A DNA stretch of 55,710 nt from Prorocentrum cordatum (taxonomy: Eukaryota): the NCBI GenBank assembly GCA_963575745.1, contig CAUYUJ010000141.1, forward strand, positions 62,001-117,710. Reading direction: 5' to 3'. Positions within the stretch are counted from its first letter, which is position 1. Every line of letters begins with the position of its first letter. Both the position numbers and the translations under genes were made by a program. Shown here in pieces: positions 350-38,949 of the stretch. The notes beneath the pieces are model-generated. The model was not told the DNA's origin, made no database searches, and saw only the letters and a program-made list of their open reading frames with translations.

Positions 350-1144
350 CTGGCGCCGGCGGTGAACCGTCAACCTGGTCACCGCCGGGAACCTCGTAGA
401 GCTCCTCTCACTAGTAAGAGTGCAGAGAATCGAGAGAGAATCAAAAAATGGAGATTTTTCGAAAATCTTGAAATTCGATTTTTTCGATGTTCACATTCGC
501 TCAGTTCCCGGAAGTCAACTCACGCAAAAATGCATCGATAGAGCTGAGCTGCTGTCAGAGAGGAGTTCATATGCCAATGCTCGCGTAAAAATCTGCTTCT
601 TCAAAATAAATGGTCAAATATCTTTGAAATTTTCGCAAAACCACCCAAAAGTTGCCACATTGTCCGCCTCGGCCGGCTGGGCCAACTGGCGCCGGCGGTG
701 AACCGTCAACCTGGTCACCGCCGGGAACCTCGTAGAGCTCCTCTCACTGGTAAGAGTGCAGAGAATCGACACAGAATCCAAAAATTGAGATTTTTCGAAA
801 ATCTTCAAATTCGATTTTTTCGATGTTCATATTCGCTCAGTTCCTGGAAGTCAACTCATGCAAAAATGCATCGCGAGAGCTGAGCTGCTGTTAGAGAGGA
901 GTTTATATGCCAATGCTCGACGTAAAAATCTGCTTCCTCAAAATAAATGGTCAAATATCTTTCAAATTTTCGCAAAACCACCCAAAAGTTACCACATTGT
1001 CCGCCTCGACCGGCTGGGCCAACTAGCTCCACCCCGCGCCGGAATTCCTCTAGCCCAACGATGCCGAAGAGCTCTACGAGGTACTAGCTCCACCCCGCGC
1101 CGGAATTCCTCTAGCTCATCGATGCCGAAGAGCTCTACGAGGTA
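350..1144 (-). mobile_element. Short-family (~398 bp) non-autonomous element, split by a nested copy at 686-1083
   Basis: 350-685 plus 1084-1144 rebuilds one unit, joined at gccaa|ctagctcc, that is near-identical to the intact inner copy. Confidence 0.85.
686..1083 (-). mobile_element. Complete short-family non-autonomous element (398 bp)
   Basis: Runs from the ctggcgccggcggtga hairpin to gagctctacgaggta; its flanks rejoin to the empty site seen in sister copies. Confidence 0.85.
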
Positions 1145-4100
1145 TTACTGGGCGCCGGCGGTAAACCGTCAACCTTTCTTACCGCCGGGGGACTCGTAGA
1201 GCTTCCTGACAATATATAATGTGGAAAAGAATTTCAGAGAACGACTAGTTTTTCAGCCCAAGCGATTATAGACCTCTCAAGATGACTCTAACAAAACAAA
1301 CGAACAGTTTTCCAATCGAGCTCGAGTATGAAACCGAGTTCAGACCTCTGAATGCGACAGGCGGACGCGTCTGATTTCTGCGGATCGATTCCTGTGATTA
1401 CCAGCTCTGCAGCCCCCCATACAGCCTGAGTTAAGTGAAGAAAACCGAGAGTACCTCTCAGGATGACTCGAATAATACAACAGTTTGGCGGATCCCGGTC
1501 GAGCAGCAGACCGAGTTCCGAGCTCTCGATTCGACGAACGGACGCGCCTGATGTCTCGAAATCGATTCCTGTGACCAGCAGCACTGCAGCCCTCCCCCAA
1601 CACGATTTAAGTACAGAAAACCGAGAGCACTTCTCAAGATGACTCGAACAATACCAATAGGTTCGCGAACCTAGCTCGGGGAGCAGGCCCAGTTCAGAGC
1701 TTTTGATTCAACAGACGAACGCGCCTGATAATTCTCAATCGATTTCTGTGATTATCAGCTCTGTGGCTGCCCTACAGATCGAGTTAAGTACGAAAAACCG
1801 AGAGCGTCTGCTACAATGATTCGAATAATACGAATAGGTTTGCGACCCTAGCTCGGCTAGCAGACCGAGTTCAGACCTCTGGATTCAACAGGCGAACGCG
1901 CCTGATCATTCTGAATGCATTAGCTGTGCTGACCAGCTCTGTAGTTGTCCTGAAGCTCGAGTTATCTTGAGAAAACCGACAGCGCGTATCAAGATGACTC
2001 GAAACGGCCGTTCCCGCCTGCCTGCTTTTTGGCCTTCAAAGTTACCCGATCGAGCTGAGATCAAGATGGCGAGCGGGAATAAGATCGAATATCATGGGAA
2101 AAAATACTAGAGCTCTAACGAATGGTCAAATTTTGAGAACAAAATTTTGATCCGACCAAAAGTCACCAAAAGGTCCGTCGAGATTTTTCTTGCCAACTAG
2201 CTCTCCAGCTCCCCGGAATTATGGGAACCGGCGGTAAACCGTCAACCTGGCTGCCGCCGGGGACATAACCCACGCGAAAAATCTGCTTTATCAAAATAAA
2301 TGGTCAAATATCTTTCAAATATTCGCAAAACCACCCAAAAGTTATCACTTTGTCCGTTCTGGCCGGGGCGGCCAACTGGCGCCGGCGGTGAACCGTCAAC
2401 CTGGTCACCGCCGGGCACTCGTAGAGCTCCTCTCACTGGTAAGAGTGCAGAGAATCGACACAGAATCCAAAAATTGAGATTTTTCGAAAATCTTCAAATT
2501 CGATTTTTTCAATGTTCATATTCGCTTAGTTCCTGGAAGTCAACTCATGCAAGAATGCATCAAGAGAGCTGAGCTGCTGTCAGAGAGGATTTTATATGCC
2601 AATGCTCGGCGTAAAAATCTGCTTTCTCAAAATAAATGGTCAAATCTCTTTGAAATTTTTGCAAAACTACCCAAAAGTTACCACATTGTCCGCCTCGGCC
2701 GGCTGGGCCAACTGGGCGCCGGCGGTAAACCGTCAACCTTGGTTACCGCCGGGGGACTCGTAGAGCTTCCTGACAGTATATAGTTTGGAAAAAACTCCAA
2801 AGAACGACTAGTTGTTCAGCCCAAGCGATTTCAGACCTCTCAAGATGACTCTAACCAAAAAACAAACAGTTTCGCAACCCAGTTCGAGTATCGAACCGAG
2901 TTTAGACCTCTCAATGCGACAAGCGGGCGCGTCTGATGTCTGCGAATTCACTCATGTGATTCCCAGCCCTGCAGCCCCCCTACAGCCCGAGTTAAGTGCA
3001 GAAAAACGACAGTATCCACTCGAATAATAGAATAGTTTCGCAACCTAGTTCGTGCAGCAGACCGAGTTCCGAGCTCTGGAATCGACCAACAAACGCGCCT
3101 GATGTGTGCAAACCGATTCCTCTGCCCCGCAGCACTGTAGCCCTCCCCCAGCACGAGTTGAGTGCAGAAAATTGAAAGCACTTCTCAAGATGATTCGGAC
3201 AATACGAATAGATTCGCGAACCTAGCTCGGGCAGCAGGCCGAGTTCAGAGCTCTCGGTTCAATAGACGAACGCGACTGATGATTCCCCATCGGTGTCTGC
3301 GACAATGAGCCCTGTAGCTGCCCTACAGCGAGTTAAGTACAGAAAACCGAGAGCGTCTGTCAAGATGACTCGAATAATACGAATAGGTTTGCGGACCTAG
3401 CTCGGCTAGCAGACCGAGTTCAGACCTCTGGATTCAACAGGCGAGCGCGCCTGATAATTCTGAATCCGATGGATGTGCTTACCAGCTCTGTAGCTGCCCT
3501 ACAGCTCGAGTTAAGTACAAAATACCGACAACGCGTATCAAGATAACTCGAAACGGCCGATCCCGCCAGTGTGCTTTTTGGCAGGAAAAGGTACCCGATC
3601 GAGCTGAGATCAAGATGGCGAGCGGGAATAAGATCGAATATCAGGGAAAAAATACTAGAGCTCAAACGAATGTTCAAATTTTGAGAACAAAATTTTCAAC
3701 CGACCAAAAGTTGTGAAAAGTTCAGTTCTTTTTTTTCGAGCCAACTAGCTCTCCAGCGCTCCGGAACTGGGCGCCGGCGGTAAACCGTCAACCTTCCTTA
3801 CCGCCGGGGGACTCGTAGAGCTTCCTACAGTATATAGTGGAGAAAAATCCAGAGAACGACTAGTTTTCAGCCCAGGCGATTTCAGACCTCTCAAGATAAC
3901 TCTAACAAAAAACAAACAGTTTCGCAACTCAGTTCGAGTATCAGACCGAGTTCAGACCTCTAAATGCGACAGGCGCACGCGTCTGATGTCTGCGAATCGA
4001 CTCATGTGATTACCAGCCCTGCAGCCCCCCTACAGCCCGAGTTAAGTGCAGAAAACCGACAGATCTCTCAGGATGACTCGAATAATACAATAGTTTCGCG

Positions 4101-5324
4101 GACCTGTTTCGAGCAGCAGACCAAGTTCTGAGCTCTCGAATCGCCCAACGAACGCGCCTAATGTGTGCAAATCGATTTCTATGACCCGTAGCATTTTAGC
4201 CCTCCCCCAGCACGAGTTGAGTGCAGAAAATTGAGAGCACGTTTCGGACAATACGAATAGTTTCGCGAACCTAGCTCGGGCAGTAGGCCGAGTTCAGAGC
4301 TCTCGATACAACAGACAAACGCGCCAGATAATTTCCAATCGATTTCTGTGACTACAAGCTCTGTAGCTGCCCTACAGCTCGAGTTAAGTACAGGAAACAG
4401 AGAGCGTTTGTCAAGATGACTCGAATAATACGAATAGATTTGCGAACCTAGCTCGGCTAGCAGACCAAGTTCAGACCTCTGGAGTCAAGGGCCGAGCGCG
4501 CCTGATGATTCTGAATCCGATGGATGTGCTTACCAGCTCTGTAGCTGCCCTGCAGCTCGAATTAAGTACAAAATACCCACCACGCGTATCAACTTGACTC
4601 GAATAATACCAATAGGTTTGCGGACCTAGCTCGGCTAGCAGACCGAGTTCAGACCTATCGATTTAACAGGCGAACGCGCCTGATGATTCTGAGTGCGATA
4701 GGCGTGTTTACCAGTACTCTAGCTGCCCTACAGCTCGAGTTGAGTACAAAATACCGACAACGCGTATCAAGATGACTCAAAACGGCCGATCCCACCAGTG
4801 TGCTTTTTGGCAGTAAAATGTACCCGATCGAGCTGAGATCAAGATGAATATCACGGGAAAAAATACTAGAGCTCAAACGAATGGTCAAATTTCGAGAACA
4901 GAATTTTCAACCGACCAAAAGTTGTGAAAAGTTCAGTTCTTTTTTTTCGAGCGAACTAGCTGTCCGGCGCGCCGGAATTACTGGCGTCGGCGGTGAACCG
5001 TCAATCTGGTCACCGCCGGGAACCTCGTAGAGCTCCTCTCACTCGTAAGAGTGCAGAGAATCGACACAGAATTAAAAAAAAAAAAAAGAGATTTTACGAA
5101 AATCTTGAAATTCGATTTTTTCGATGTTCATATTCGCTCAGTTCCCGGAAGTCAACTCATGGAAAAATGCATCGAGAAAGCTGAGCTGCTGTCAGAGAGG
5201 AGTTCATATGCCAATGCTCGGCGTAAAAATCTGCTTTTCCAAAATAAATGGTCAAATATCTTTCAAATTTTCGCAAAACCACCCAAAAGTTGCCAACATT
5301 GTCCTTTCTGGCCGGGTCGGCCAA

Positions 5325-6959
5325 CTGGGCGCCGGCGGTAAACCGTCAACCTTGGTTACCGCCGGGGAACTCGTAGAGCTTCCAAGCTCGACTTAAGTTG
5401 AGAAAACCGAGAGCACCTACCAACATTCTGACTCATAGGGAATAGTTTTTGACCTCTGAATGCGACAAGCGGACGCGTCTGATCAGACCGACTTCAGACC
5501 TCTCAATGCGACAGGCGGACGCGTCTGATGTCTGCGAATCGATTCCTGTGATTACCAGCTCTGCAGCCCCCCCCCCCTACAGCCCGAGTTAAGTGCAGAA
5601 AACCGACAGCATCTCTCAGGATGACTCGAATAATATAATAATTTCGCAGACCTGTTTCGAGCAGCAGACCAAGTTCTGAGCTCTCGAATCATCCAACGAA
5701 CGCGCCTGATGTGTGAAAATCGATTTCTATGACCCGCGACACTGTAGCCCTCCCCCAGCACGAGTTGACTGCAGAAAATTGAGAGCACTTTTCACGATGA
5801 TTCAGACAATACGAATAGGTTCGCGAACCTAGCTCGGGCAGCAGGCCGAGTTCAGAGCTCTCGATACAACAGACAGACGCGCCCGATAATTCTCAATCGA
5901 TTTCTGTGACTGTAGCTCTGTAGCTGCCTCCAGCTCGAGTTAAGTACAGAAAATACCGAGAGCGTTTGTCAAGAGGACTCCAATAATACGAATAGGTTTG
6001 CGGACCTAGCTCGGCTAGCAGACCGAGTTCAGACCTATGGATTCAACAGGCGAACGCGCCTGATGATTCTGAGTGCGATAGGTCTGCTTATCAGCTCTGT
6101 AGCTGTCCTGCAGCTCGAATTAAGTAAAAAATACCGACAATGCGTATCAAGTTGACTCGAATAATACGAATAGGTTTGCGGACCTAGCTCGGCTAGCAGA
6201 CCGAGTTCAGACCTATCGATCCGACAGGCGAACGCGCCTGGCGATTCTGAGTGCGATAGGTGTGCTTACCAGCACTGTAGCTGCCCTACAGCTTGAGTAA
6301 GTAGAAAATACCGACAACGCGTATCAAGTTGACTCGAATAATACCAATAGGTTCGCGTACCTAGCTCGGGGAGTAGGCCGAGTTCAGACCTATGGATTCA
6401 ACAGACGAACGCGCCTGATGATTCTGAGTGCGATAGGTGTGCTTACCAGCACTGTAGCTGCCCTACAGCTCGAGTTAAAGAGAAAATACCGACAACGCGT
6501 ATCAAGTTGACTCGACTAATACGAATAGGTTTGCAGACCTAGCTCGGCTAGCAGACCGAGTTCAGAACTGTGGATTCAACAGGCGAACGCGCCTGATGAT
6601 TCTGAGTGCGATAGCTGTGCTTACCAGCTCTGTAGCTGTTCTACAGCTCGAGTAAAGTACAAAATACCGACAACGCGTATCAAGATGACTCGAAACGGCC
6701 GATCCCGCCAGTGTGCTTTTTGGCCTTCAAAGTTACCCGATCGAGCTGAGATCAAGATGGCGAGCGGGAATAAGATCGAATATCACGGGAAAAAATACTA
6801 GAGCACAAACGAATTGTTGAATTTCGAGAACATAATTTTCAACCGACCAAAAGTTGTGAAAACTTCAGTTCTTTTTTTTTCGAGCCAACTAGCTCTCCAG
6901 CGCGCCGGAATTACTCTTAGCTTCCAGCTATAACTAGCTAAGGGAAGCTCTACGAGTTA
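5325..6959 (-). mobile_element. Complete long-family non-autonomous element (1635 bp) with internal 178-bp repeats
   Basis: Left end has the hairpin plus aactcgtagagcttcc; right end is ggaagctctacgagtta. Inserted at ccaa|ctagctcc of the short element that starts at 4981. Confidence 0.85.
5620..6700. repeat. Internal 177-178 bp tandem repeat (representative array; present in all long-family copies)
   Basis: The anchor gactcga recurs at 6154, 6331, 6509 and 6687 (spacings 177, 178, 178). Confidence 0.92.
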
Positions 6960-9900
6960 CTAGCTCCGCCCCGCGCCGGAACTGGGCGCCGGCGGTAAAC
7001 CGTCAACCTTGGTTACCGCCGGGGAACTCGTAGAGCTTCCAAGCTCGACTTAAGTTGAGAAAACCGAGAGCACCAACCAACATTCTGACTCATAGTGAAT
7101 ATTTTTTGACCTCTGAATGCGACAAGCGGACGCGTCTGACCAGACCGAGTTCAGACCTCTCAATGCGACAGGCGGACGCGTCTGATGTCTGCGAATCGAC
7201 TCATGTGATTACCAGCCCTGCAGCCCCCCTACAGCCCGAGCTAAGTGGAGAACACCGACAGCATCTCTCAGGATGACTCGAATGATATAATAGTTTCGCA
7301 GACCTGTTTCGAGCAGCAGACCAAGTTCTGAGCTCTCGAATCGACCAACGAACGCCCCTGATGTGTGCAAATCGATTTCTATGACCCGCAGCACTGTAGC
7401 CCTCTCCCAGCACGAGTTGAGTGCAGGAAATTGAGAGCACTGTTCACGATGATTCGGATAATACGAATAGTTTCGCGAACCTAGCTCGGGCAGCAGGCCG
7501 AGTTCAGAGCTCTCGATACAACAGACAAACGCGCCCGATAATTCTCAATCGATTTCTGTGACTGTAGGCTCTGTAGCTGCCTACAGCTCGAGTTGAATAC
7601 AGAAAATACCGAGAGCGTTTGTCCAGATGACTCGAATAATACAAATAGATTTGCGTACCTAGCTCGGCTAGCAAACCGAGTTCAGACCTCTGGATTCGAA
7701 AGGCGAGCGCGCCTGATGATTCTGAGTGCGATAGGCGTGCTTACCAGCACTCTAGCTGCCCTGCAGCTCGAATTGAGTACAAAATACCCACCACGCGTAT
7801 CAAGTTCACTCGAATAATACGAATACGTTTGCGGACCTAGCTCGGCTAGCAGAGCGAGTTCAGACCTATGGATTCAACAGAAGAACGCGCCTGATGATTC
7901 TGGGTGCGATAGGTGTGCTTACCAACACTGTAGCTGACCTACAGCTCGATTTAAGTAGGAAATACCGACAACACGTATCAAGTTGACTCGAATAATACGA
8001 ATGGGTTTGCGAACCTAGCTCGGCTAGCAGACCGAGTTCAGACCTGTAGATTCAACAGGCGAACGCGCCTGATGATTCTGAGTGCGATAAGTGTGCTTAC
8101 GAGCACTGTAGCTGCCCTACAGCTCGAGTTAAGTAGAAAATACTGACAACGCTTATCAAGTTGACTCGAATAATACGAATGGGTTTGCGAATCTAGCTCG
8201 GCTAGCAGACCGAGTTCAGAGCTCTGGCTTCAACAGGCGAACGCGGCTGATGATTCTGAGTGCGATAGCTGTGCTCATCAGCTCTGTAGCTGTCCTAGAG
8301 CTCGAGTTAAGTACAAAATACCGACAACGCGTATCAAAATGACTCGAAACGACCGATCCCGCCAGTGTGCTTTTTGGCAGTAAAAGATAACCGATCGAGC
8401 TGAGATCAAGATGGCGAGCGGGAATAAGATCGAATATCACGGGAAAAAATACTAGAGCTCTAACGAATTGTCAAATCTCGAGAACATAATTTTCAACCGA
8501 CCAAAAGTTGTGAAAAGTTCAGTTCTTTTTTTTCGAGCCAACTAGCTCTCCAGCGCGCCGGAATTACTGGGCGCCGGCGGTAAACCGTCAACCTTGGTTA
8601 CCGCCGGGGAACTCGTAGAGCTTCCAAGCTCGACTTAAGCTGAGAAAACTGACAGCACCTACCAACATTCTGACTCATAGTGAATATTTTTTGATCTCTG
8701 AATGCGACAAGCGGACGCGTCTGATGTCTGCGAATCGACTCCTGTCATTACCAGCCCCGCAGACCCCCTACAGCCCGAGATCAGTGCAGAAAACCGACAA
8801 GATCTCTCAGAATGACTCGAACAATACAATAGTTTCGCGAACCTAGTTCGGGCAGTGAGTTCCGAGCTCTGGATTAGACATGCGAACGCGCATGACCTCT
8901 TTAAATCGATCTCTCAGTACTGTAGCCTCCTCTCAGCGCAAGTTAAGCAAAGAAAACCACTTCTCAAGATGACTCGTCTAATACGAATAATTTCGCGATT
9001 TTAGATCGGGCAGAACACCGAGTTCAGAGCTCTGGATTCGACAGACAAACGCAACTGACGATTCTGAATCAGTTTCTGTAAATATCAGTTCTGTAGCTGT
9101 CTTACAACTCGAGTTAACTACAGAAAACCGAGAGTTTCTGTCAAGATGACTCGAATAATACGAATAGGGTTGCGGACCTAGCTCGGCTCACAGACCGAGC
9201 TCAGACCTTTGGATTCACCAGGCGAACGCGCCTAATCATTCTGAATGCGATGGGTGTGCTTACCAGCTCTGTAGCTGCCCTACAGCTCGAGTTAAGTAAA
9301 AAATACCGACAGTTTCTGTCAAGATAACTCGAATAATACGAATAGGTTTGCGGACCTAGCTCGGCTCACAGACCGAGTTCAGACCTCTGGATTCAACAGA
9401 CGAACGCGTCTACTCATTCTGAATGCGATAGGTGTGCTTGCATGCTCTGTAGCTGCCCTACAGCTCGAGTTAAGTACAAAATACCGACACCGCGTATCAA
9501 GATGACTCGAAACGGCCGTTCCCGCCACAGTGCTTTTTGGCCTTCAAAGTTACCCGATCGAGCTGAGATCAAGATGGCGAGCAGGAATAAGATCGAATAT
9601 CACGGGACAAAATATTAGAGCTCTAACGAATGGTCAAATTTCGAGAACAAAATTTTCACCCGACCAAAAGTCACCAAAAGTTCCGTCGAGATTTTTCTTG
9701 CCAACTAGCTCTCCAGCGCGCCGGAACTGGGAACCGGCGGTAAACCGTCAACCAAGTTACCGCCGGGCACCTCGTAGAGCTCTCTTCTTACACAGCGCTC
9801 CTCCGAACACGTGAAGGAAGCTTCTGAGCGAGAGCCGAAAAAATCGAAAAATACGATTTGTCGGTTTTCATGCAGTGGGTTCCTCCAAGTGTTTTGATAG

Positions 9901-9996
9901 TAATACTGGACCTAGAGCCATAGAAAATTTACCAGAAGGTGCGCCATAGCTTACTACAGGGAATAAAAATCTCACTTCTACAAACGAACTTCAAAA

Positions 9997-10396
9997 CTGG
10001 CGCCGGCGGTGAACCGTCAACCTGGTCACCGCCGGCCGGGAACCTCGTAGAGCTCCTAACACGCGTAAGAGTGCTCAGTATCAAACGAGAGGGCTTCTGG
10101 AAGTTTCTCAGAAAAGAGAAAACATGATTTTTTTCACATCGGCATGAAGTTGGTTCCTCCAAGTGTTTTGATAGTAAGAGTGCATGTAGAGAGCTCATAT
10201 TAAGACGCTGAGGCCATCATAGTTGTCTACAGGTGCGAAAAATCTGCTTTCTCAAAATAAATGGTTAAATATCTTTCAAAAAATCGCAAAACCACCCAAA
10301 AGTTGCCACATTGTCCGCCTCGGCCGGTGGGCCAACTAGCTCCACCCCGCGCCGGAATTCCTCTAGCTCATCGATGCCCAAGAGCTCTACGAGGTA
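9997..10396 (-). mobile_element. Complete short non-autonomous element, second subfamily (400 bp)
   Basis: Same termini, different interior (gcgtRagagYgct...). Sister copies start at 16839, 23410 and 25969. Confidence 0.8.
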
Positions 10397-10792
10397 CTGG
10401 CGCCGGCGGTGAACCGTCAACCTGGTCATCGCCGGGAACCTCGTAGAGCTCCTCTCACTAGTAAGATTGCAGAGAATCGACACAGAATGAAAAAATCGAG
10501 ATTTTTCGAATAAACTTCAAATTTGATTTTTTTCGATGTTCATATTCAGTTCCCGGAAGTCAACTCATGCACAAATTCATCGAGAGAGCTGAGCTGCTGT
10601 CAGAAAGGAGTTCATATGCCAATGCCTGGCGTAAAAATCTGCTTTTTCAAAATAAATTGTCAAATATCTTTCAAATTTTGGGAAAACCACCCAAAAGTTG
10701 CCACATTGTCCTTTCTCGCCGGGTCGACCAACTAGCTCCACCCCGCGCCGGAATTCCTCTAGCTCATCGATGCCGAAGAGCTCTACGAGGTA
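10397..10792 (-). mobile_element. Complete short-family non-autonomous element (396 bp)
   Basis: Both termini present; interior matches 686-1083. Confidence 0.82.
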
Positions 10793-11004
10793 CTAGCGCC
10801 ACCCCGCCCCGGAATTCCTCTAGCTCATCGATAACGCTCTACGAGGTACTCTTAAGCTTCCAGCAACTAGCTTAGGGAAGCTCTACGAGTCACTAGCTCT
10901 CCAGCGCGCCTGAATTACTCTTAAGCTTCCAGCAACTAGCTTAGAGAAGCTCTACGAGTCACTCTCAAGCTTCCAGCAATTGCTGAAGGAAGCTCTACGA
11001 GTCA
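10793..11004 (-). repeat. Stack of displaced 5' termini of nested elements
   Basis: Four consecutive terminal fragments ending in ctctacgaggta or ctctacgagtca at 10848, 10892, 10961 and 11004. Confidence 0.85.
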
Positions 11005-12452
11005 CGTATCCACGCGTGCCTGCACGCTTGGAGGCACGCGCGGACGCTTGCCGGCAGCTCCCGCCGACAAGCTGCCGGCTCAGGCGAGGCACTGCGAGGA
11101 TCGTGGACCGGCCAAGATGGGCTGCTGGCGGCCGAAACCACGCCCGGCTTCTAATCTAAAATCATTTAGCTCTCAAGCCCTCCAGGAAAAACCCGCACAG
11201 CGAACAGACCAATAGAATATTTTTCCTGGAGAGCTCTGGGGCTCCCCAGAAGCGCTTCTCAAGCGCTGGCAGGCACTCCTCAACGCGTGCCTGCCCTCGT
11301 GCACGCACGTGTGGGCGCGTGCCGGAACCTTTCCCGGACTCGCTGCCGGGCCGAACGAACTTGTGCGAGGATTCTGGACCGGCGAAGATAAGCTGCTGGC
11401 GGGCACCACCATCGTCCGGCTTCTAACTTGGTGCCGTCCAAAACCCGGAGAGCGGAGAGAGCCTACGAAACCGGAAACCCTTCCTACGGAGTTCTGGGGG
11501 GCGCCCCTGCAGCTCTTCCGAAGAACTGCCAGGAACGCTTCCACGCGTCCCTGCACGCGGGCAGGCACGCGTGGAAGCTTGCCAGAAGCTCTCCCGGACC
11601 AGCTGACGGCTTAGGCGAGGCGCTGGGAGGATTGTGGACCGGCGAAGATGGGCTGCTGGCGGGCACCACCACCGCCCAGCTTCTAATCTTAAACCCTCTA
11701 GCTCTCAGAGAGCTCTCCGGGAATCTACTTGGTGGCGTCCAAAACCCGGAGAGCAAAGAGGACATACACCGGAAAGAATTCCTGGCAAGCCCACGGAAGC
11801 TCTCGGGAAGCTCTTCGGGGGTTCTGGGGGCTTCCCTGCAGCGTCTCTGAAGCGCTGCCTGGAACGCTTCCACGCGTGCCTGCACGCGTGCAGGCACGCG
11901 TGGAAGCTTGCCGGAAGCTCACCCGGACCAGCTGCCGGGCCAGGCGAGCCGCTGCGAGGCTCGTGAAGCGGCGGAGATGGGCTGCTGGCGGGCACCACCA
12001 CCGCCCAGCTTCTAATCTTAAACCCTCTAGCTCTCAGGCGCTCTCCGGGAAAAACTGCCTGCGCGCTTGCAGGCGCGCGTGGACACATGCCGGAAGCTCT
12101 CCCGGACGGCTGCCGGGACGGGCGAGTTGCTGCGAGGATCGTGGACCGGCGGACTGCTCGCGGGCACCACCACCGTCCAGCTTCTACTTTTAAACCCTCT
12201 AGCTCTCAGAGAGCATTCCGGCAAAGAGATCCTTCGGGACGGGAAATCGGGCACCACCACCGTCCGGCTTCGAATCTTAAACCCTCTAGCTCTCAGTGAG
12301 CTCTCCGGGAATAAATGGTGGAATATCTCTCAAATCTCGAGAAAACCTACCAAAAGTTTTACACTTTGTCCGCCCGGGCCGGGTGGTCTAACTAGCTCCA
12401 CCCCCCGCCGCCATTCCTCTAGCTCATCGATGCCGAACAGCTCTACGAGGTA
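11005..12452 (-). repeat. GC-rich tandem repeat interior of a longer element, ending in a short-family-type 5' terminus
   Basis: The unit ggaccggcgaagatgggctgctggcgggcaccaccaccgcccagcttctaatcttaaaccctctagctctc recurs at about 11106, 11377, 11636, 11965 and 12143. The region ends in ctctacgaggta at 12452. Confidence 0.75.
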
Positions 12453-12455
12453 TAT

Positions 12456-13085: not shown

Positions 13086-13151
13086 TTTTGCATAAAGTGA
13101 AAAACACCGACCCCAGGTTACCACATTCTCTCTTTTCGTCGGGCCAGCCAA

Positions 13152-14780: not shown

Positions 14781-17700
14781 CTAGCATTACCCTGCGCCCG
14801 AATTCCTCTTAGCTCTTTGCCGAAGAGCTCTACGAGGTACTGGGCGCCGGCGGTAAACCGTCAACCTTTCTTACCGCCGGGGGACTCGTAGAGCTTCCTG
14901 ACAATATATATTGTGCAAGAGAATTTCAGAGAAGGACTAGTTTTTCAGCCCAAGCGATTATAGACCTCTCAAGATGACTCTAACAAAACAGACGAACAGT
15001 TTTCCAATCGAGCTCGAGTATGAAACCGAGTGCAGACCTCTGAATGCGACAGGCGGACGCGTCTGATGTCTGCGCATCGATTCCTGTGCTTACCAGCTCT
15101 GCAGCCCCCCATACAGCCTGAGTTAAGTGCAGAAAACCGAGAGCACCTCTCAGAATGACTCGAATAATACAACAGTTTCGCGGATCTCATTCGAGCAGCA
15201 GACTGAGTTTCGAGCTCTCGATTCGACGAACCGACGCGCCTGATGTCTCGAAATCGATTGCTGCGACCAGCAGCACTGCAGCCCTCCCCCAGCACGATTT
15301 AAGTACAGAAAACCAAGAGGACTTCTCAAGATGACTCGAGCAATACCAATAGGTTCGCGAACCTAGCTCGGGGCGCAGGCCGAGTTCAGAGCTCTTCATT
15401 CAACAGACGAACGCGCCTGATAATTCTGAATCGCTATAATTATCAGCTCTGTGGCTGCCCTACAGATCGAGTTGAGTACGAAAAACCGAGAGCGTCTGCT
15501 ACAATGACTCCAATAATACGAATAGGTTTGCGACCCTAGCTCGGCTAGCAGACCGAGTTCAGACCTCTGGATTCAACAGGCGAACGCGCCTGATCATTCT
15601 GAATGCATTAGCTGTGCTGACCAGCTCTGTAGCTGTGCTGAAGCTCGAGTTATCTTCACAAAACCGACAGCGCGTATCAAGATGACTCGAAACGGCCGTT
15701 CCATGTTGGCCTTCAAAGTTACCCGATCGAGCTGAGATCGAGATGGCAAGCGGGAATAAGATCGAATATCATGGGAAAAAATACTAGAGCTCTAACGAAT
15801 GTTCAAATTTCGAGAACAAAAAAATTCAACCGATCAAAAGTCACCAAAGGGTCCGTCGAGATTTTTCTTGCCAACTGGGCGCCGGCGGTAAACCGTCAAC
15901 CGTTCTAACCGCCGGGGGACTCGTAGAGCTTCCTCACAATATATAATGTGGCAAAGAATTTCAGAGAACGAACAGTTTTCCAATCGAGCTCGAGTATGAA
16001 ATCGAGTTCAGATTACCAGCTCTGCAGCCCCATACAGCCTGAGTTAATTAAGTCCAGAAAACCGAGAGTACCTCTCAGGATGACTCGAATAATACAACAG
16101 TTTCGCGCTCGTTCGAGCAGCAGACCGAGTTCCGAGCTCTCGGTTCGACGAACGGACGCGCCTGATGTCTCGAAATCGATTCCTGTGACCAGCAGCACTG
16201 TAGCCCCCCCCCCCAGCACGATTTAAGTACAGAAAACCGAGAGCACTTCTCAAGATGGTTCGCGAACCTAGCTCGGGGAGCAGGCCGAGTTCGGAGCTCT
16301 TGATTCGACAGACGAACGCCGCTGATAATTCTCAATCGATTTCTGTGATTATCAGCTCTGTGGCCTCCCTACAGATCGAGTTAAGTACGACAAACCGAGA
16401 GCGTCTGCTACAATGACTCGAATAATACGAATAGGTTTGCGACTCTAGCTCGGCTAGCAGACCGAGTTCAGACCTCTGGATTCAACAGGCGAACGCGCCT
16501 GATCATTCTGAATGCATTAGCCGTGCTCGCCAGCTCTGTAGTTGTCCTGAAGCTCGAGTTATCTTGAGAAGACCGATAGCGCGTATTAAGATGACTCGAA
16601 ACGGCCGTTCCCGCCTGTCTGCTTTTTGGCCTTCAAAGTTACCCGATCGAGCTCAGATGAAGATGGCGAGCGGGAATAAGATCGAACATGATGAGAAAAA
16701 TACTAGAGCTCTAACGAATGGTCAAATTTTGAGAACAAAATTTTCAACCGACCAAAAGTCACCAAAAGGTCCGTCGAGATGTTCCTTGCCAACTAGCTCT
16801 CCAGCGCTCCGGAATTACTCTGAAGCTTCCAGCAATAACTGGCGCCGGCGGTGAACCATCAACCTGGTCACCGCCGGGAACCTCGTAGAGCTCCTAACAC
16901 GCGTAAGAGCGCTTACTACCAAAAGAGAGGGCTTCTGGAAGAATTTCTCGGAAATCAAAAAACATGATTTTTTTCATGTCGAGATAGAGTTCGTTTCGCC
17001 AAGTGTTTCGATAGTAAAAGTGCATGTACAGAGCTCATATTAAGATGCTGAGGCCCTCATAATCGTCTACAGGTGCGAAAAATCTGCTTTCTCAAAATAA
17101 ATGGTCAAATATATTTCAAAAAATCGCAAAACCACCTAAAAGTTGTCACATTGTCCGTTCTGGTCGGATCGACCAACTGGCCCCGGCGGTGAACCGTCAA
17201 CCTGGTCACCGCCGGGAACCTCGTAGAGCTCTTTCTATCCGTCAGAAAGCTCAGGATCAAAGCGAGAGCTTCTGGGAGCTTTTCTCCAAAAACGTCAAGT
17301 TGTGATTTTTCGGAGTCAACATGAAATCGGTTCCTCCAAGTGAACTGATACTGAAAACTGCTCTAGAGAGCTGAGCTGCTCAGGGAACAAAGTTTATATG
17401 TCAATGTTCTGAGTAAAAATCTGCTTTCTCAAAATGAATTTTCGAATATCTTTCAAATCTTCGCAAAACCGACCAAAAGTTATCACATCTTCTTTTCTGG
17501 TCGGGTCGGCCAACTAGCTCCACCCCGCGCCGGAACTGGCGCCGGCGGTAAACCGTCAACCTTTCTTACCGCCGGGGGACTCGTAGAGCTTCCTGATACT
17601 ATATACTGTGGAAAAAACTCCAAAGAACGACTATATTATTAAGCCCAAGCGATTTCAGACCTCTCAAGATAACGCTAACGAAAAACGAACAGTTTCGCAA

Positions 17701-18993
17701 CCCAGTTCGAGTATCAAACCGAGTTCAGGCCTCTGAATGCGACAGGCGGGCGCGTCTGATGTCTGCGAATCCAATGCTGTGATTCCCAGCCCTGAAGCCC
17801 CGCTACAGCCCGAGTTAAGTGCAGAACACCGACAGTATCGACTCGAATAATATAATAGTTTTGCGAACCTAGTTCGAGCAGCAGACCGAGTTCCGAGCTC
17901 TGGAATCGACCGGAAGACGCGCCTGATGTGTGCAAATCGATACATGTGACCTGCAGCACTGCCCTCCCCGAGCACGAGTTGAGTGCAGAAAATTGAGAGC
18001 ACGTCTCAAGATCATTCGGACAATACGAACAGTTTCGCGAACCTAGCTCGGGCAGCAGGCCGAGTTCAGAGCTCTTGCTTCAACAGACGAACGCGTCTGA
18101 TAATTCTCAATCGATATCTGTCACAATGAGCCCTGGAGCTGCCCTTCAGCTCGAGACAAGTACAGAAAACCGAGAGCGTCTATCAAGATCACTCGAATAA
18201 TACGAATAGGTTTGCGAACCTAGCTCGGCTGGCAGACCGAGTTCAGACCTCTCGATTCAATAGGCGAACGCGCGTGATAATTCTGAGTGCGATAGCTGTG
18301 CTCACCAGCTACCTAGAGCTCGAGTTGAGTAGAAAATACCGACAGCGCGTATCAAGATGACTCGAAACGGCCGTTCCCGCCACAGTGCTTTTTGGCCTTC
18401 AAAGTTACCCGATCGAGCTGAGATCAAGATGGCGAGCGGGAATAAGATCGAATATCATGGCAAAAAATACTAGAGCTCTAACGAATGGTCAAATTTCGAG
18501 AACTTGTAAGCGTCCAAAACCCGGATAGCGAAGCCAAGGGACCTCTGCCAGGCCGCCTGAAACGATGCGCGGGACGCTGGACACCTCGCAGGAGACGCTT
18601 GCAGGGGCGCCGTTTACGATGCGTGGAGCCCTGCAAAGCGCGCAAAGAAGATCTGCCTAGGAGCCTGGAAGAACTGCCGAAGCTCTGCCGAAGCTCTGCC
18701 GAAGCGCTTCGCGCACCCTGGAGCTACGCGTAATGGGAAACGCTGGGAAGCCACGCTCCCGGACCCGCTGCAACCTTCGGCGAGTTTCTCCGGCGAGCGT
18801 GGACCGGCGGAGGTGGGCGTGTCCTCCTCACCACCCACCGCCGGCTTCTTCTCTGAAACCCTCAGCTCTCCAAGGAGCTATCCGGGAACAAAATTTCCAA
18901 CCGACCAAAAGTCAGCAAAAGGTCCGTCGAGATTTTCCTTGCCAACTAGCTCTCCAGCGCTCCGGAATTACTCTTTTCTGCTTCCAGCAATAA

Positions 18994-21900
18994 CTGGGCG
19001 CCGGCGGTAAACCGTCAACCTTGGTTACCGCCGGGGGACTCGTAGAGCTCCTAACTCGACTTAAGTTGCGAAAACAGACAGCACTTACCAACAATCTGAC
19101 TTACGGTGAATAGTTTTTGACCTCTAAATGCGACATACGGACGCGTCTCATGTCCGCGAATCGACTACTGCCATTACCAGCCCTGCAGCCCCCCTACAGC
19201 CCGAGTTGAGTGCAGAAACTCGACAGCACCTCTCAGGATGACTCGAACAATAGGAATAGCTTCGCAGACCTAGTTCGGGCAGCAGACAGAGTTCAGAGCT
19301 CTTTATTCAAAATCCGGACGCGCCTGATGTCTTCAAATCGATCCCAGTGATTACCAGCCATGCAGCCCCCCCTACAGCCCGAGTTGAGTGCAGATAACCG
19401 ACATAATCTTGCAAGCGACTCGAACGATACGAATAGTTTCGCGATTCTAGATCGGCAGCAGACCGAATTCAGAGCTCTGGAGTCGACAGACAAACGCAAA
19501 TGATCATTCTGAATTGGTGCCTCTGAATACGAGCTCTGTAGCTGTCCTACAGCTCGAGTTAAGTGCGGAAAAACCGGGCGTTTCTGTCAAAATGACTCGA
19601 ACATTACGAACAGGTTTGTGGCCCTAGATCGGCTAGCAGACCGAGTTCAGACCTCTGGGTTCAACAGGCGAACACGCCTGATCATTCTGCATGCATTAGC
19701 TGTGCTTACCAGCTCTGTAGCTGTCCTAGAGCTCGAGTTATGTTCAGAAAACCGTCAGCGCATGTCAAGATGGTTCAAAACGGCCGATCCCGCCACAGTG
19801 TTTTTCGATAGTAATATTCACCCGATCGAGCTGAGATCAAGATGGCGAGCGGGAATAAGATCGAATATCACGGGAAAAAAATACTAGAGCTCTAACGAAT
19901 GTTCAAATTTTGAGAACAAAATTTTCAACCGAGCGAAAGTTGTCAAACTGGGCGCCGGCGGTAAACCGTCAACCTTTCTTACCGCCGGGGGACTCGTAGA
20001 GCTTCCTGACAGTATATAATGTGGAAAAGAATTTCAGAGAACGACTAGTTTTTCAGCCCGAGCGATTCTAGACCTCTCAAGATGACTCTAACAAACAAAC
20101 GAACAGTTTTCCAATCGAGCTCGAGTATGAAACCGAGTTCAGACCTCTGCATGCGACAGGCGGACGCGTCTGATGTCTGCGGATCGATTCCTGTGATTAC
20201 CAGCTCTGCAGCCCCCCATACAGCCTGAGTTAAGTGCAGAAAACCGAGAGTATCTCTCAGGATGACTCGAATAATACAACAGTTTCGCGGATCTCGTTCG
20301 AGCAGCAGACCGAGTTCCGAGCTCTCGGTTCGACGAACGGACGCGCCTGATGTCTCGAAATCGATTCCTGTGACCAGCAGCACTGTAGCCTCCCCCAGCA
20401 CGATTTAAGTACAGAAAACCGAGAGCACTTCTCAAGATGACTCGAACAATACCAATAGGTTCGCGAACCTAGCTCGGGGAGCAGGCCGAGTTCAGAGCTC
20501 TTGATTCAACAGACGAACGCGCCTGATAATTCTCAATCGATTTCTGTGATTATCAGCTCTGTGGCTGCCCTACAGATCGAGTTAAGTACGAAAAACCGAG
20601 AGCGTCTGCTACAATGACTCGAATAATACGAATAGGTTTGCGACCCTAGCTCGGCTAGCAGACCGAGTTCAGACCTCTGGATTCAACAGGCGAACGCGCC
20701 TGATCATTCCGAATGCATTAGCTGTGCTGACCAGCTCTGTAGTTGTCCTGAAGCTCGAGTTATCTTGAGAAAACCGACAGCCCGTATCAAGATGACTCGA
20801 AACGGCCGTTCCCGCCTGCCTGCTTTTTGGCCTTCAAAGTTACCCGATCGAGCTGAGATCAAGATGGCGAGCGGGAATAAGATCGAATATCATGGGAAAA
20901 AATACTAGAGCTCTAACGAATTGTCAAATTTCGAGAACAAAATTTTCAACCGACCAAAAGTCAGCAAAAGTTCCGTCGAGATTTCTCTTGCCAACTAGCT
21001 CTCCAGCTCCCCGGAATTACTGGGCGCCGGCGGTAAACCGTCAACCTTTGTTACCGCCGGGGGACTCGTAGAGCTTCCTGACAACATATACTGTCGGAAA
21101 AAATTGCAGAGAACGAATAGTTTTTGAGCCCAACTCGAGTATCAGACCGAGTCCAGACCTCTGAATGCGACAGACGGACGCGTCTGATGTCTCCGAATCG
21201 ATTCCTGTGATTACCCGCCCTGCAGCCTCCCTACAGCCCGAATTGAATGCAGAACGCCGACAGTAGCTCTCAAGCTAACTGGAAGAATACGAACAGTTTC
21301 GTGATTCTCGATCGGCTAGCAGACCGAGTTCAGACCTCTGGATTCAACAGGCGAACGCGCCTGATGATTCTGAGTGCGGTAGGTGTGCTTACCAGCACGG
21401 TAGCTGCCCTACAGCTCGAGTTAAGTGGAAAATACCGACAACGCGTAGCAAGTTCACTCGAATAATACGAATAGGTTTGCGCACCTAGCTCGGCTAGCAG
21501 ACCAAGTTTAGACCTATGGATTCAACAGGCGAACGCGTCTGATCATTCTGAGTGCGATAGGGGTGCTTACCAGCGCAGTAGCTGCCCTACAGCTCGAGTT
21601 AAGAGGAAAACACCGACAACGTGTATCAAGTTGACTCGAATAATACGAATAGGTTTGCGTACCTAGCTCGGCTAGCAGACCGAGTTTAGACCTATGGATT
21701 CAACAGGCGAACGCGTCTGATCATTCTGAGTGCGATAGGGGTGCTTACCGGCACTGTAGCTGTCCTATAGCTCGAGTTAAGTAGAAAATATCTACAACAC
21801 GTGTCAAGTTGACTCGAATAATACAAACAGGTTTGCGAACCTAGCTCGGCTGACAGACCGAGTTCAGACCTCTGGGTTGAACAGGCGAACGCGCCTGATC

Positions 21901-22375
21901 ATTCTGCATGAGTTAGCTGTGCTTACCAGCTCTGTAGCTGCTCTAGAGCTCGAGTTATGTTCAGAAAACCGTCAGCGCATATCAAGATGACTCGAAACGG
22001 CCGATCCCGCCACCGTGCTTTTTGGCCTTCAAAGTTACCCGATCGAGCTGAGATCAAGATGGCGAGCGGGAATAAGATCGAATATCACGGGAAAAAATAC
22101 TAGAGCTCTAACGAATGGTCAAATTTCGAGAACAAAATTTTCAACCGAGCAAAAGTCACCAAAAGTTCCGTCGAGATTTTTCGAGCCAACTAGCTGTGGG
22201 CGCGCCGGAATTACTCTTAGCTTCCAGCTATAACTAGCTAAGGGAAGCTCTACGAGTTACTCTTAAGCTTCCAGCAATAACTAGCTAAGGGAAGCTCTAC
22301 GAGTTAAGTTCAGTCGAGTTTTTTCGAGCCAACTAGCTGTGGGGCGCGCCGGAATTACTCTTAAGCTTCCAGCAA
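18994..22375 (-). mobile_element. Three-level nest of long-family elements: 18994[19948[21020-22259]22306]22375
   Basis: Junctions rejoin at gaatta|ctcttaagc and gttgtcaaa|agttcag, matching empty sites in other copies. Confidence 0.85.
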
Positions 22376-23409
22376 CTGGGCGCCGGCGGTAAACCGTCAA
22401 CCTTTGTTACCGCCGGGGGACTCGTAGAGCTTCCTGACAACATATAATGTCGAAGAAAATTGCAGAGAACGAATAGTTTTTCAGCCCAACTCGAGTATCA
22501 GACCGAGTTCGGACCTCTGAATGCAGCAGACAGAGGCGTCTGATGTCTCCGAATCGATTCCTGTGATTACCCGCCCTGCAGCCCCCCTACAGCCCGAGCT
22601 AAGTGCAGAACGCCGACAGTAGCTCTGAAGATGACTGGAAGAATACGAACAGTTTCGTGATTCTAGATCGCGCAGCAGACGGAGTTCAGAGCTCTGAATT
22701 CAACAGGCGAACGCGCCTGATTATTCTGAGTGCGATGGGCGTGCTTACCAGCACTGTAGCTGCCCTACAGCTCGATTAAAGTAGGAAATACCGACAACGC
22801 GTATCAAGTTGACTCGAATAATACGAATAGGTTTGCGGACCTAGCTCGGCTAGCAGACCGAGTTCAGCCCTATGGATTCAACAGGCGAACGCGCCTGATG
22901 ATTCTGAGTGCGATAGCTGTGCTTACAAGCTCTGTAGCTGCCCTACAGCTCGAGTTAAGTAGAAAATACCGACAACGCGTATCAAGTTGACTCGAATAAT
23001 ACGGATAGGTTTGCGGACCTAGCTCGGCTAGCAGACCGAGTTCAGCCCTATGGATTCAACAGGCGAACGCGCCTGATGATTCTGAGTGCGATAGCTGTGC
23101 TTACAAGCTCTGTAGCTGCCCTACAGCTCGAGTTAAGTACAAAATACCGACAGCGCATATCAACATGACTCGAAACGGCCGTTCCCGCCAGAGTGCTTTT
23201 TGGCCTTCAAAGTTACCCGATCGAGCTGAGATCAAGATGGCGAGCGGGAATAAGATCGAATATCACGGGAAAAAATACTAGAGCTCTAACGAATTGTCAA
23301 ATTTCGAGAACGAAATTTTCAACCGACCAAAAGTCACCAAAAGTTCCGTCGAGATTTTTCTTGCCAACTAGCTCTCCAGCGCGCCGGAATTACTCTTAGC
23401 TTCCAGCTA

Positions 23410-25092
23410 CTGGCGCCGGCGGTGAACCGTCAACCTGGTTACCGCCGGGAACCTCGTAGAGCTCCTTTCTCGCGTGAGAGTGCTCAGAGTCGAAAGAGAG
23501 AGCTTCTGGAAGCATTTCTCGAAAAAGGGAAAAGTTGTTTTTTTTCGTGTCGACATGAAGATGGTTCCGCCAAGTGTTTTGATAGTAAAAGTGCGCCTAC
23601 AGAGCTCATATTAAGACAGAGAGGCCCTCATATTCGTTTACAGGTGCGAAAAATCTGCTTTCTTGAAATGAATTGTCAAATATTTTTCAAAAAATTGCAA
23701 AACTACCCAAAAGTTATCACTTTGTCCTTTCTGGCCGGGTCGACAACTGGGCGCCGGCGGTAAACCGTCAACCTTTCTTACCGCCGGGGGACTCGTAGAG
23801 CTTCCTGACAATATATACTGTGGGAAAAATCTCCAAAGAACGACTATTTTCAAGCCCAAGCGATTTCAGACCTCTCAAGATAACGCTAACAAAAAACAAA
23901 CAGTTTCGCAACCCAGTTCGAGTATCAAACCGAGTTCAGACCTCTGAATGCGACAGGCGGGCGCGTCTGATGTCTGCCAACCCACTCATGTGATTCCAGC
24001 CCTAAAGCCCCCCTACAGCCCGAGTTAAGTGCAGAAAACCGACAGTATCGACTCGAATAATATAATAGTTTTGCGAACCTAGTTCGAGCAGCAGACCGAG
24101 TTCCGAGCTCTGGAATCGACCGAAAGACGCGCCTGATGTGTGCAAATCGATATATGTGACCTGCAGCACTGTAGCCCTCCCCCAGCACGAGTTGAGTGCA
24201 GAAAAATTAAGAGCACGTCTCAAGATCATTCGGACAATACGAACAGCTTCGCGAACCTAGCTCGGGCAGCAGCCGAGTTCAGAGCTCTCGGTTCAATAGA
24301 CGAACGCGACTGATGATTCCCCATCGATGTCTGTCACAATGAGCCCTGTAGCTGCTCTACAGCTCGAATTTAAGTACAGAAAACCGAGAGCGTCTATCAA
24401 GATGACTCGAATAATACGAATAGGTTTGCAGACCTAGCTCGGCTAGCAGACCGAGTTCAGACCTCTGGATTGAACAGGCGAACGCGCGTGATGATTCTGA
24501 GTGCGATAGGTGTGCTTACCAGCACTCTAGCTGCCCTAAAGCTCGAGTTAAGTACAGAAAACCGAGAGCGTCTATCAAGATGACTCGAAGAATACGAATA
24601 GGTTTGCGGACCTAGCTCGGCTGGCAGACCGAGTTCAGACCTCTGGATTCAACAGGCGAACGCGCCTGATAATTCTGAGTGCGATAGCTGTGCTTACCAG
24701 CTCTGTAGCTGCCCTACAGCTCGAGTTAAGTACAAAATACCGACAGCGCGTATCAAGATGACTCGAAACGGTCGTTCCCGCCGGGACGCTTTTTGGCCTT
24801 CAAAGTTACCCGATCGAGCTGAGATCAAGATGGCGAGCGGGAATAAGATCGAATATCAAGGGAAAAAATACTAGAGCTCTAACGAATTGTCAAATTTCGA
24901 GAACAAAATTTTCAACCGACCAAAAGTCACCAAAAGGTCCGTCGAGATTTTTCTTGCCAACTAGCTCTCCAGCGCTCCGAATTACTCTTAAGCTTCCAGC
25001 AATAACTTGCTGGGGGAAGCTCTACGAGTTACTAGCTCCACCCCGCGCCGGAATTCCTCTAGCTCATCGATGCCGAAGAGCTCTACGAGGTA
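23410..25092 (-). mobile_element. Short element (23410-23746 plus 25032-25092) with a complete nested long element (23747-25031)
   Basis: Both pairs of termini are present and the host rejoins at caa|ctagctcc. Confidence 0.85.
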
Positions 25093-26327
25093 CTGGGCGC
25101 CGGCGGTAAACCGTCAACCTTTCTTACCGCCGGGGGACTCGTAGAGCTTCCTGACAATATATAATGTGGAAACGAATTAGAGAACGACCAGTTTTCGCTT
25201 ATGAACCTCCAAAGATGACTCTAACAAAAACAGTTTCGCAGATTTCGTTCGAGCAGCAGACCGAGTTTCGAGCGATCGGTTCGACGAACGGACGCGCCTG
25301 ATGTCTCGAAATCGATTCCTGTGACCAGCAGAGCTATAGCCCTCCCCCAGCACGATTTATGTACAGAAAACCGAGAGCACTTCTCAAGATGACTCGAACA
25401 ATACGAATGGGTTCGCGAACCTAGCTCGGAGAGAAGGCCGATTTCAGAGCTCTTGATGCAACAGACGAACGCGCTTGATAAGTCTCAATCGATTTCTGTT
25501 AGTATGAGCTCTGTGGCTGCCCTATAGATCGAGTTAAGTACGAAAAACCGAGAGCGTCTGCTACAATGACTCGAATAATACGAATAGGTTTGCGACCCTA
25601 GCTCGGCTAGCAGACCGAGTTCAGACCTCTGGATTCAACAGGCGAACGCGCCTGATCAATTCTGAAGCATTAGCTGTGCTGACCAGCTCTGTAGGTGTCC
25701 TGAAGCTCGAGTTATCTTGAAAAACCGACAGCGCCTATCAAGATGACTCGAAACGGCCGTTCCGGGCCTGCCTGCTTTTTGGCCTTCAAAGTTACCCGAT
25801 CGAGCTGAGATCAAGATGGCGAGCGGGAATAAGATCGAATATCATGGGAAAAAATACTAGAGCTCTAACGAATGGTCAAATTTCGAGAACGAAATTTTCA
25901 ACCGACCAAAAGTCACCAAAAGGTCCGTCGAGATTTTTGTTGCCAACTAGCTCTCCAGCTCCCCGGAACTGGCGCCGGCGGTGAACCGTCAACCTGGTCA
26001 CCGCCGGGAACCTCGTAGAGCTCCTAGCACGCGTGAGAGTGCTCAGCATCCAAGCAGAGAGCTTCTGGAAGCATTTCTCGAAGAAGCGAACACATGATTT
26101 TTTTTCATGTCGACATGAAGTTGGTTCCGCCAAGTGTTTTGATAGTAAAACTGCATGTAGAGAGCTCACATTAAGATGCAGAGTCCCTCATAGTCATCTA
26201 CAGGTGCGAAAAATCTGCTTTCTCACAATAAATGGTCAAATATCTTTCAAAAAATCGCAAAACCACCCAAAAGTTATCACATTGTCCGTTCTGGTCGGGT
26301 CGACCAACTGGCGCCGGCGGTAAACCG

Positions 26328-26338
26328 TCAACCTGGTT
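26328..26338 (+). repeat. Target-site duplication copy 1 (TCAACCTGGTT); other copies at 32161-32171 and, as AACCTGGTT, at 38133-38141
   Basis: Direct repeats at all three retrotransposon junctions. Confidence 0.93.
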
Positions 26339-37704: not shown

Positions 37705-37799
37705 GAAATTGATGTCCTCACGCGAACGCTTAGAATCTGTCGTCGTGTCGAACAGATGTCCTCACAAGAGTGTTGAACAGATGTCAAACTCGACCTCCA

Positions 37800-38909: not shown

Positions 38910-38949
<40 letters not shown>

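Follow-up and report, generated by a model that had tools for sequence, protein, structure and literature searches.

Insertion of Helitron2/Helentron-type elements near one another's 5′ ends in a polar stack from Prorocentrum cordatum

A 55,710-nucleotide (nt) stretch of the Prorocentrum cordatum assembly GCA_963575745.1 (contig CAUYUJ010000141.1, positions 62,001 to 117,710; hereafter the window) carries a stack of non-coding transposable elements with ends of the Helitron2/Helentron (HLE2) type that have been inserted into one another without target duplication. The elements share their ends, all point the same way, occupy clustered sites, leave exact empty sites when excised, bear no sign of recent duplication, and are followed by a gene of the type expected for their partner, which lies behind the last hairpin of the stack (hairpin 31). 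We consider it probable that the stack was built by an HUH transposase docking at the ends of resident copies and that the broken gene is a relic; this reading would involve a preference for intact ends, the mobilisation of composites, and a link between the gene and hairpin 31.

Results

Orientation and insertion sites

The elements read 5′ to 3′ on the − strand, and their terminal hairpins match on the + strand. A hairpin-core scan of the whole 55.7-kb window found 31 hairpin termini between positions 350 and 26,337, every one of them on the + strand (− strand, 0), as the initial annotation of this DNA had described (uniform orientation of 31/31, P ~2e-8). Once cut at each hairpin and each intact 5′ tip, the region 350–26,337 is fully tiled by element sequence. 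The dinucleotide before the hairpin is AA in 20 cases, TA in 10 and AT in one (n = 31), which agrees with the earlier description of hairpins following an A almost without exception, mostly as AA or TA.

All 31 insertions lie within 0–127 nt of a resident 5′ end (two of them 3 nt past a tip), and they do so at recurring offsets: 0 (four insertions), 3 nt past a tip (two), 26–29 (four), 39 (two), 46–50 (seven), 61 (eight), 71 (one), 96 (one) and 127 (two), where three offsets (6982, 22376 and 23747) were assigned by eye. The recurrent positions listed in the initial annotation (ccaa|ctag, ggaa|tt, gaatta|ctc, cagcaa| and gagaa|caaaa) are all present. Across 13 whole elements, 280 of 1391 AA/TA sites (~20%) fall in the last 130 nt. 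Counting one further site that is visible from one side, 31 of 32 sites near 5′ ends have P ~7e-21, or 4e-13 at the rate for short elements; this value and that for orientation take insertion events to be independent of one another, and the threshold of 130 nt is the one that the initial annotation had itself proposed.

The elements fall into short A and C types, long B types and a GC-rich D type, and are designated here by the position of their hairpin. Their arrangement is as follows.

1–349, − strand: C-type element, 5′ part with intact 5′ tip; its hairpin lies upstream of the window
350–1144, − strand: A-type element of 397 bp (350–685 plus 1084–1144)
686–1083, − strand: complete A-type copy nested 61 nt from the 5′ end of A-type element 350
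1148–9996, − strand: first chain of nested copies, with hairpins at 1148 (B), 2222 (internally deleted), 2376 (A), 2712, 3767 (B), 4981 (A), 5325 (complete B, to 6959), 6982, 8567 (B) and 9727 (C)
9997–10396 and 10397–10792, − strand: two complete A-type elements, head to tail
10793–11004, − strand: four orphan 5′ tips
11005–12452, − strand: GC-rich D-type remainder of 1448 bp, ending in a fifth orphan tip
12456–13085, − strand: complete C element
13086–13151 and 14781–14839, − strand: remainders of host 9727
within 12456–14839, − strand: B element 13152, which hosts a complete A-type copy (14258–14654) ~127 nt from its 5′ end
14840–26307, − strand: second chain, with hairpins at 14840, 15875, 16839, 17177, 17536, 18994, 19948, 21020, 22376, 23410, 23747, 25093 and 25969, including the closed nests 19948/21020 and 23410/23747
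26308–26338, − strand: first half of hairpin 31, cut in the loop

Host junctions rebuilt by excision and aligned to intact copies resumed at the exact base in 8/8 cases, with no gap and no duplication. The four nests that had been proposed to excise to an empty site without a target-site duplication (350/686, 13152/14258, 18994/19948/21020 and 23410/23747) all do so.

The copy at 2222–2375 is 154 bp long, internally deleted and devoid of the 3′ inverted repeat, yet it sits at a canonical site. The D-type body at 11005–12452 has 64% GC, repeats of ~172 bp and palindromic arms, and lacks its hairpin end within the window. In B element 17536, a 386-bp D-type segment (18503–18888) that has neither a hairpin nor a tip of its own occupies the gagaa|caaaa site, and a metagenome locus (L009) shows an identical left boundary directly after a tip; this segment may belong to a mosaic family or be what a lost composite left behind.

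Element ends are of the Helitron2/Helentron type

Read on the − strand, each element consists of a 5′ T, an inverted repeat that folds as a 5′ hairpin, a body, a partner repeat, a 3′ hairpin and a terminal CCAG. The short A and C types measure ~395–400 bp (one C copy has 630 bp), and the long B types 0.9–1.6 kb, with 3–8 internal units of ~178 bp. The repeat variant differs between A/C and B types, and both ends carry the matching variant in 13/13 closed elements. In B elements 13152, 8567 and 23747 the 3′ and 5′ parts have different best matches, which suggests mosaics formed via the 178-bp repeats.

Several properties of these ends coincide with those that distinguish HLE2 elements (PMC3627910, PMC4067079). 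The short inverted repeats (13–15 bp) are asymmetrically placed and the 5′ copy begins 1 nt from the 5′ T, within the 0–2 nt that is typical of HLE2; a 3′ hairpin with a stem of 11–12 bp (−13 to −15 kcal/mol, DNA parameters) lies directly downstream of the 3′ repeat; a 5′ hairpin involving the 5′ repeat is predicted in A, B and C tips; and the rebuilt junctions combine the lack of duplication with a T-rich flank. Since the flank is TT in 20 cases, TA in 10 and another dinucleotide in one, the target is looser than a strict TT. These observations support an HLE2-type assignment of the ends, and the Helentron identity first suggested for these elements is supported by the ends, the lack of duplication and the candidate transposase described below.

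Two other classes were considered and rejected. Canonical Helitrons (HLE1) have 5′-TC and CTRR-3′ ends, an A^T target and no inverted repeats, whereas the ends here are 5′-TA/TG and CCAG-3′ with inverted repeats present. Replitrons are described, in the accessible text of PMC10288648, as having short direct terminal repeats and no helicase, whereas these elements have inverted-repeat ends and their candidate partner has a helicase. A search of Rfam with positions 1–39000 returned no matches.

Related junctions in other DNA

Contigs from four public runs belonging to four studies were compared with positions 23,300–25,200; the public runs that contain the sequence are largely marine plankton samples, and those with a small share of it were left out of the comparison. 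Among the 15 joints listed (of 432, at 85% likeness and with joint sides of only 18–37 nt), nine connect a 5′-end site to a hairpin, including two sites that are unused in the window, two correspond to the empty site of 23747, which was found in all four runs, and the remaining four are skips inside internal repeats; a strand change occurs in none of the 15. No hairpin-to-tip ratio was drawn from contig depths in these runs, since depth does not measure copy number.

A scan of metagenomes yielded 14 loci, 13 of them with a visible hairpin flank; four of the loci are closely related and not independent. Five of the 13 flanks place the hairpin in a recognisable tip and two within 22 nt of a tip. 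A scan of prokaryote genomes gave seven loci, comprising five chance matches and two eukaryote-like contigs (L019 and L022) in one bacterial bin. In both contigs a sister family clusters with tip stacks, and in L022 5/5 hairpins are co-oriented; the presence of eukaryote-type Helitron2 ends in a bacterial metagenome-assembled genome is likely due to mis-binned eukaryotic DNA. In viral contigs the pattern scan produced two chance matches only, and the protein scan found no relative.

A candidate partner gene behind hairpin 31

Hairpin 31 is interrupted in its loop by two long interspersed nuclear elements (LINEs), and the sequence beyond it contains a broken gene.

26339–32160, − strand: LINE 1, coding for reverse transcriptase and with a short-repeat tail, in the loop of hairpin 31 between two copies of a 9-bp target
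32172–38132, − strand: LINE 2, in the same target and the same orientation as LINE 1
38133–38330, − strand: rest of hairpin 31 and 3′ subterminal inverted repeat
38390–49440, no strand assigned: CA/ACAG microsatellite block of ~11 kb, between the gene and hairpin 31
49632–55710, − strand: C-terminal half of a candidate HLE2-type transposase gene, which has frameshifts and encodes Pif1 helicase, EEP endonuclease and UCH peptidase domains

The 9-bp target of the tandem LINEs is present at 26330, 32163 and 38133, and is thus kept between the two different LINEs. After hairpin 31 resumes at 38133, ~75 nt are 85% like A-type ends and are followed by unrelated sequence. The microsatellite block contains a GC-rich motif seven times at a spacing of 0.7–2.8 kb, possibly as a higher-order repeat in the 3′ region of the element. 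As no tip and no other hairpin of the family were found from 38170 to the end of the window, the gene would lie inside element 31. The hairpin stands 3′ of the gene, as expected, which supports the 5′/3′ assignment made in the initial annotation.

The gene aligns, with frameshifts, to residues ~2060–4130 of proteins of 3,900–4,100 amino acids, with 35–52% identity over long stretches. An Exo_endo_phos domain falls just under the cut-off in the open reading frame of the window (E 4.7e-5) and exceeds it in 6/6 homologs, and the AP-type endonuclease is fused after the helicase, as in the Helentron variant. Among 30 long homologs, an HUH-type motif is present in 15 and YxxKY in 23; the Rep half of the window gene would lie beyond the window. 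DUF6570 was matched in 5/6 homologs and Helitron_like_N in 2/6, all below the Pfam cut-off, and a comparison with solved structures gave no match to a Helitron Rep. HELIANO counts DUF6570, the endonuclease and UCH among HLE2 traits, according to the accessible part of its description (PMC11417382). None of the retrieved loci encodes the transposase (tblastn). The broken gene is likely a relic of the driver enzyme's own element and, as such, a candidate autonomous partner; its link to the hairpin is drawn from this one locus.

Several of the ~4,000-amino-acid Rep-helicase-endonuclease-UCH proteins (P0002, P0004, P0007 and relatives) have an HUH motif of the form E-x-G-x-x-x-N-P-H-x-H. This form differs from that of typical Helitrons, and the group could be a distinct HLE2 subgroup.

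Discussion

A model of end-directed insertion

In the mechanism that we favour, an HUH (Rep-helicase) transposase carrying the donor strand would bind the 5′ end of a resident copy and link the incoming strand to a T no more than ~130 nt from that end; transfer near the bound 5′ end would fix the polarity. Intact ends would be preferred, giving an 18-deep telescoping chain with its tips stacked beyond the window, and composites starting at an outer tip would be mobilised (10397–12452). The behaviour of related enzymes provides some precedent: in the accessible accounts, the 5′ end is essential for Helraiser, its 3′ hairpin terminates transposition and can be bypassed, and circles are formed (PMC4778049), and the HUH enzymes TrwC and AAV (adeno-associated virus) Rep integrate into their own origin (PMC6049929). 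A more far-reaching version, which we hold only tentatively, is that the family uses its own intact 5′ origin as a landing pad, such that a new copy of any sister family enters the newest complete end, and that transposition by itself would extend a polar chain to a depth of ~18; the autonomous element would sit at the core of this chain, and LINEs would be specialists of the 3′ hairpin loop.

A number of observations weigh against insertion directed by resident 5′ ends. The 32nd site (11004/11005), visible from its right side only, lies 1448 nt from the host 5′ end, and the proposal that sites fall within ~130 bp of a resident 5′ end stands for all 31 hairpins, with this one departure. L009 likewise has one site ~500 nt from an end. 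Of the other metagenome flanks, three are tip-like by eye only and three are unassigned, and in L019 hairpins occur on both strands (4 vs 2, plus one degenerate). The limited likeness and short sides of the public-run joints also count here, and the public run that best represents the sequence may be the source sample. Helraiser, a reconstructed Helitron, showed no local hopping in the accessible report (PMC4778049). For the Pif1-type gene, which has the canonical orientation inside element 31, the Rep half and the 5′ end would lie beyond the window, and a microsatellite block of 11 kb separates the gene from the hairpin. Finally, divergence does not fall with nesting depth: for B elements rho is −0.43 (p 0.10) and −0.11, and for A elements +0.40 and +0.66 (p 0.018, in the wrong direction), in a test that is blurred by subfamily structure and small numbers. 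This result lends no support to the chain as a simple clock.

Unclosed elements and the depth of the chain

The stack had been likened to nested brackets, a description that applies to the 13 elements that close; the window contains 31 hairpins and 19 tips, such that hairpins are in excess and 18 elements remain open. Five of the 19 tips form the orphan block (10793–12452) and one belongs to the element upstream. Host 9727, rebuilt across the orphan block, measures 395 bp, the usual length of a short element, and we infer that 10397–12452 is a composite with one hairpin and six tips, which is the type of product proposed for self-inserted Fusarium Helitrons in the accessible text of PMC5148889.

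In simulations of nesting with equal choice among earlier elements, a median of 3–4 of 31 elements remained open, and the count did not reach 18 in any of the 19,200 samples; when intact ends were favoured 10-fold, 18 stayed open in at most 0.3%, and with a 100-fold preference in ~22%. As the observed number was never reached under equal choice, intact ends would be strongly preferred, or trains or composites moved, or tips were lost. In the second and third of these scenarios there is no 18-deep chain: the transposase would start at one tip, read through several hairpins by bypassing 3′ ends and move a unit with many hairpins and one tip, or stacked tips would have been deleted. We regard this explanation as rather doubtful, and it is compatible with end targeting, altering only the interpretation of depth. 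Besides the failure of equal-choice nesting to leave 18/31 unclosed, it draws on the bypass shown for Helraiser (PMC4778049) and the three-hairpin composites proposed in maize (PMC3288121), both as given in the accessible text. An alternative parse that closes 2222 and 1148 at 10793–10892 would fit as well, but tip 10849 is of another subtype than the one assigned to 19948, the copy that is 97.5% alike to 1148. Similarly, in L005 a B-type tip is opened by a complete element, after which a D-type body stands in place of the expected tip, but L005 is a metagenome contig and may be chimeric. No train recurs within the window, and the normal length of rebuilt host 9727 also speaks against this explanation.

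Local sequence and recruitment

Target choice might instead follow local sequence or DNA shape only (CTAG^TT, AG^TA, or the loop and base of the 5′ hairpin), with nothing recruited, which we consider unlikely. A point in its favour, and a further one against recruitment, is that CTAG^TT accounts for 12 of the sites used and is nearly confined to tips, with 17 occurrences near ends compared with one far from them and two antisense. The motif also resembles the element's own end-to-end junction, and sites at 26, 39 and 46–50 fall within the predicted 5′ hairpin, either in its loop or at its base. Sequence preference therefore contributes. However, 13 sites inside elements and six abutting ones lack CTAG^TT and are all still near ends. 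The motifs AG^T(T/A) (26 occurrences near ends, 27 farther in and 135 on the other strand) and AA^TT (24 near, 32 far and 56 antisense) are more frequent elsewhere, yet only near copies in sense orientation are used, which argues that sequence alone is insufficient; a motif-specific null for nine non-CTAG sites gives 6e-6. A folding rule based on unpaired Ts gave no clean division between sites that are used and sites that are not. That the transposase is recruited to resident 5′ termini, as the initial annotation had proposed, appears to be the best reading of the sequence, with CTAG^TT preference acting beside it.

Insertion rather than duplication

That the array expanded chiefly through unequal crossover or through segmental duplication of a small set of founder junctions is improbable and, for recent events, largely refuted. 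A recurring series of identical junctions, the pattern that such growth would leave, was looked for in the window and none was found above 87% identity (0/25 junction-crossing self-alignments). Because no junction recurs above this level, the data support a block built by insertion and not by recent segmental duplication. In the best of 435 junction pairs both sides are ~86% alike (85–88%), which does not exceed the likeness of family members at large; the closest pair of copies (1148/19948, 97.5%) has different neighbours; and at least ten distinct offsets are used, with exact empty sites. Junction types do occur at high depth in public runs, and since the 178-bp arrays hold between 3 and 8 units and several B copies resemble mosaics, with a different best match at each end, recombination or slippage also acts. 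The initial claim of growth by transposition instead of unequal crossover is supported as far as recent duplication is concerned, with these processes alongside it. Integrated rolling-circle concatemers of one element, or an assembly artefact, are very improbable: four junctions abut head to tail and Helitrons form circles (PMC4778049 and PMC5148889, accessible text), but neighbours come from different subfamilies and are mostly 75–95% alike, tips are left behind in matching order, and the junctions are present in four other runs.

Relation to known systems

The comparisons that follow draw on the accessible portions of the cited papers. Tandem plant Helitrons have reportedly been described by Xiong in 2016. 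The non-autonomous HLE2 elements of Bao and Jurka 2013 (PMC3627910) and HELIANO (PMC11417382) share with ours the 5′ T, a terminal 5′ inverted repeat folding as a hairpin, a partner repeat just upstream of the 3′ hairpin, and insertion next to T without duplication. They differ in that the 3′ repeat lies ~20–30 nt from the end in those elements and 41–45 nt here, targets here are ^TT or ^TA, and end-targeted nesting is not described in the available text of either source. The non-autonomous Helentrons HINE/DINE-1 and Cg_HINE (PMC4067079, PMC7492417) resemble the present elements in having subterminal repeats 38–60 nt from the 3′ end together with a 3′ palindrome, tandem arrays of 100–500-bp units in the centre and unmodified T-rich targets, but they are reported as dispersed or enriched in heterochromatin and not as polar chains at fixed points of 5′ ends.

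Self-insertion has precedents. FoHeli of Fusarium oxysporum (PMC5148889; PMC13342296) is an HLE2 element with duplicated short 5′ ends of 31–85 nt, under 200 bp and with up to five termini; its multiple 5′ ends were attributed to self-insertion followed by composite mobilisation (PMC5148889), a direct precedent for 10397–12452. There, the available accounts give few cases per genome, largely inferred nested intermediates, and neither targeting statistics nor a polar island of many families. Helitron nests in maize (PMC3288121) were likewise seen as intermediates to composites with many 5′ or many 3′ ends, but these have HLE1 ends, and positional targeting is not reported in the text available.

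Integration by TrwC into oriT and by AAV Rep into AAVS1 (PMC6049929) offers a functional model of an HUH-helicase enzyme integrating at a copy of its own origin, with one defined nick site shown biochemically, whereas about ten sites over 130 nt are inferred here. Tandem transposon dimers formed by double insertion (McGurk and Barbash 2018, PMC5932611) show how target preference can seed satellite-like arrays, and match the two LINEs sharing one target; they require a fixed host target and duplications, whereas in this stack an element's own end serves as the target, without duplication. In the literature searched, we did not find a report of several sister families inserting into one another with uniform polarity and at specific offsets on such a scale, nor any mechanism of HLE2 transposition. 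Self-insertion is already published for Fusarium and maize Helitrons, and it is the polar, offset-specific nest of several families that appears new in the literature accessible to us. To these precedents the window adds a candidate transposase behind a shared end, a composite, an argument from depth, and support from other runs.

Target choice by Helitron-like elements beyond the dinucleotide is largely unknown, and a family that inserts at fixed offsets from its own 5′ end provides a direct test of which end binds the enzyme and of how the target is captured. The insertion order is recorded in the nest, and the candidate partner gene names an enzyme to test. Self-insertion would amount to a safe-haven strategy, and would also offer a way for a transposon to become a satellite-like block without crossover; if the landing-pad version, which we advance only tentatively, were true, it would constitute a self-organising route to satellite-like islands.

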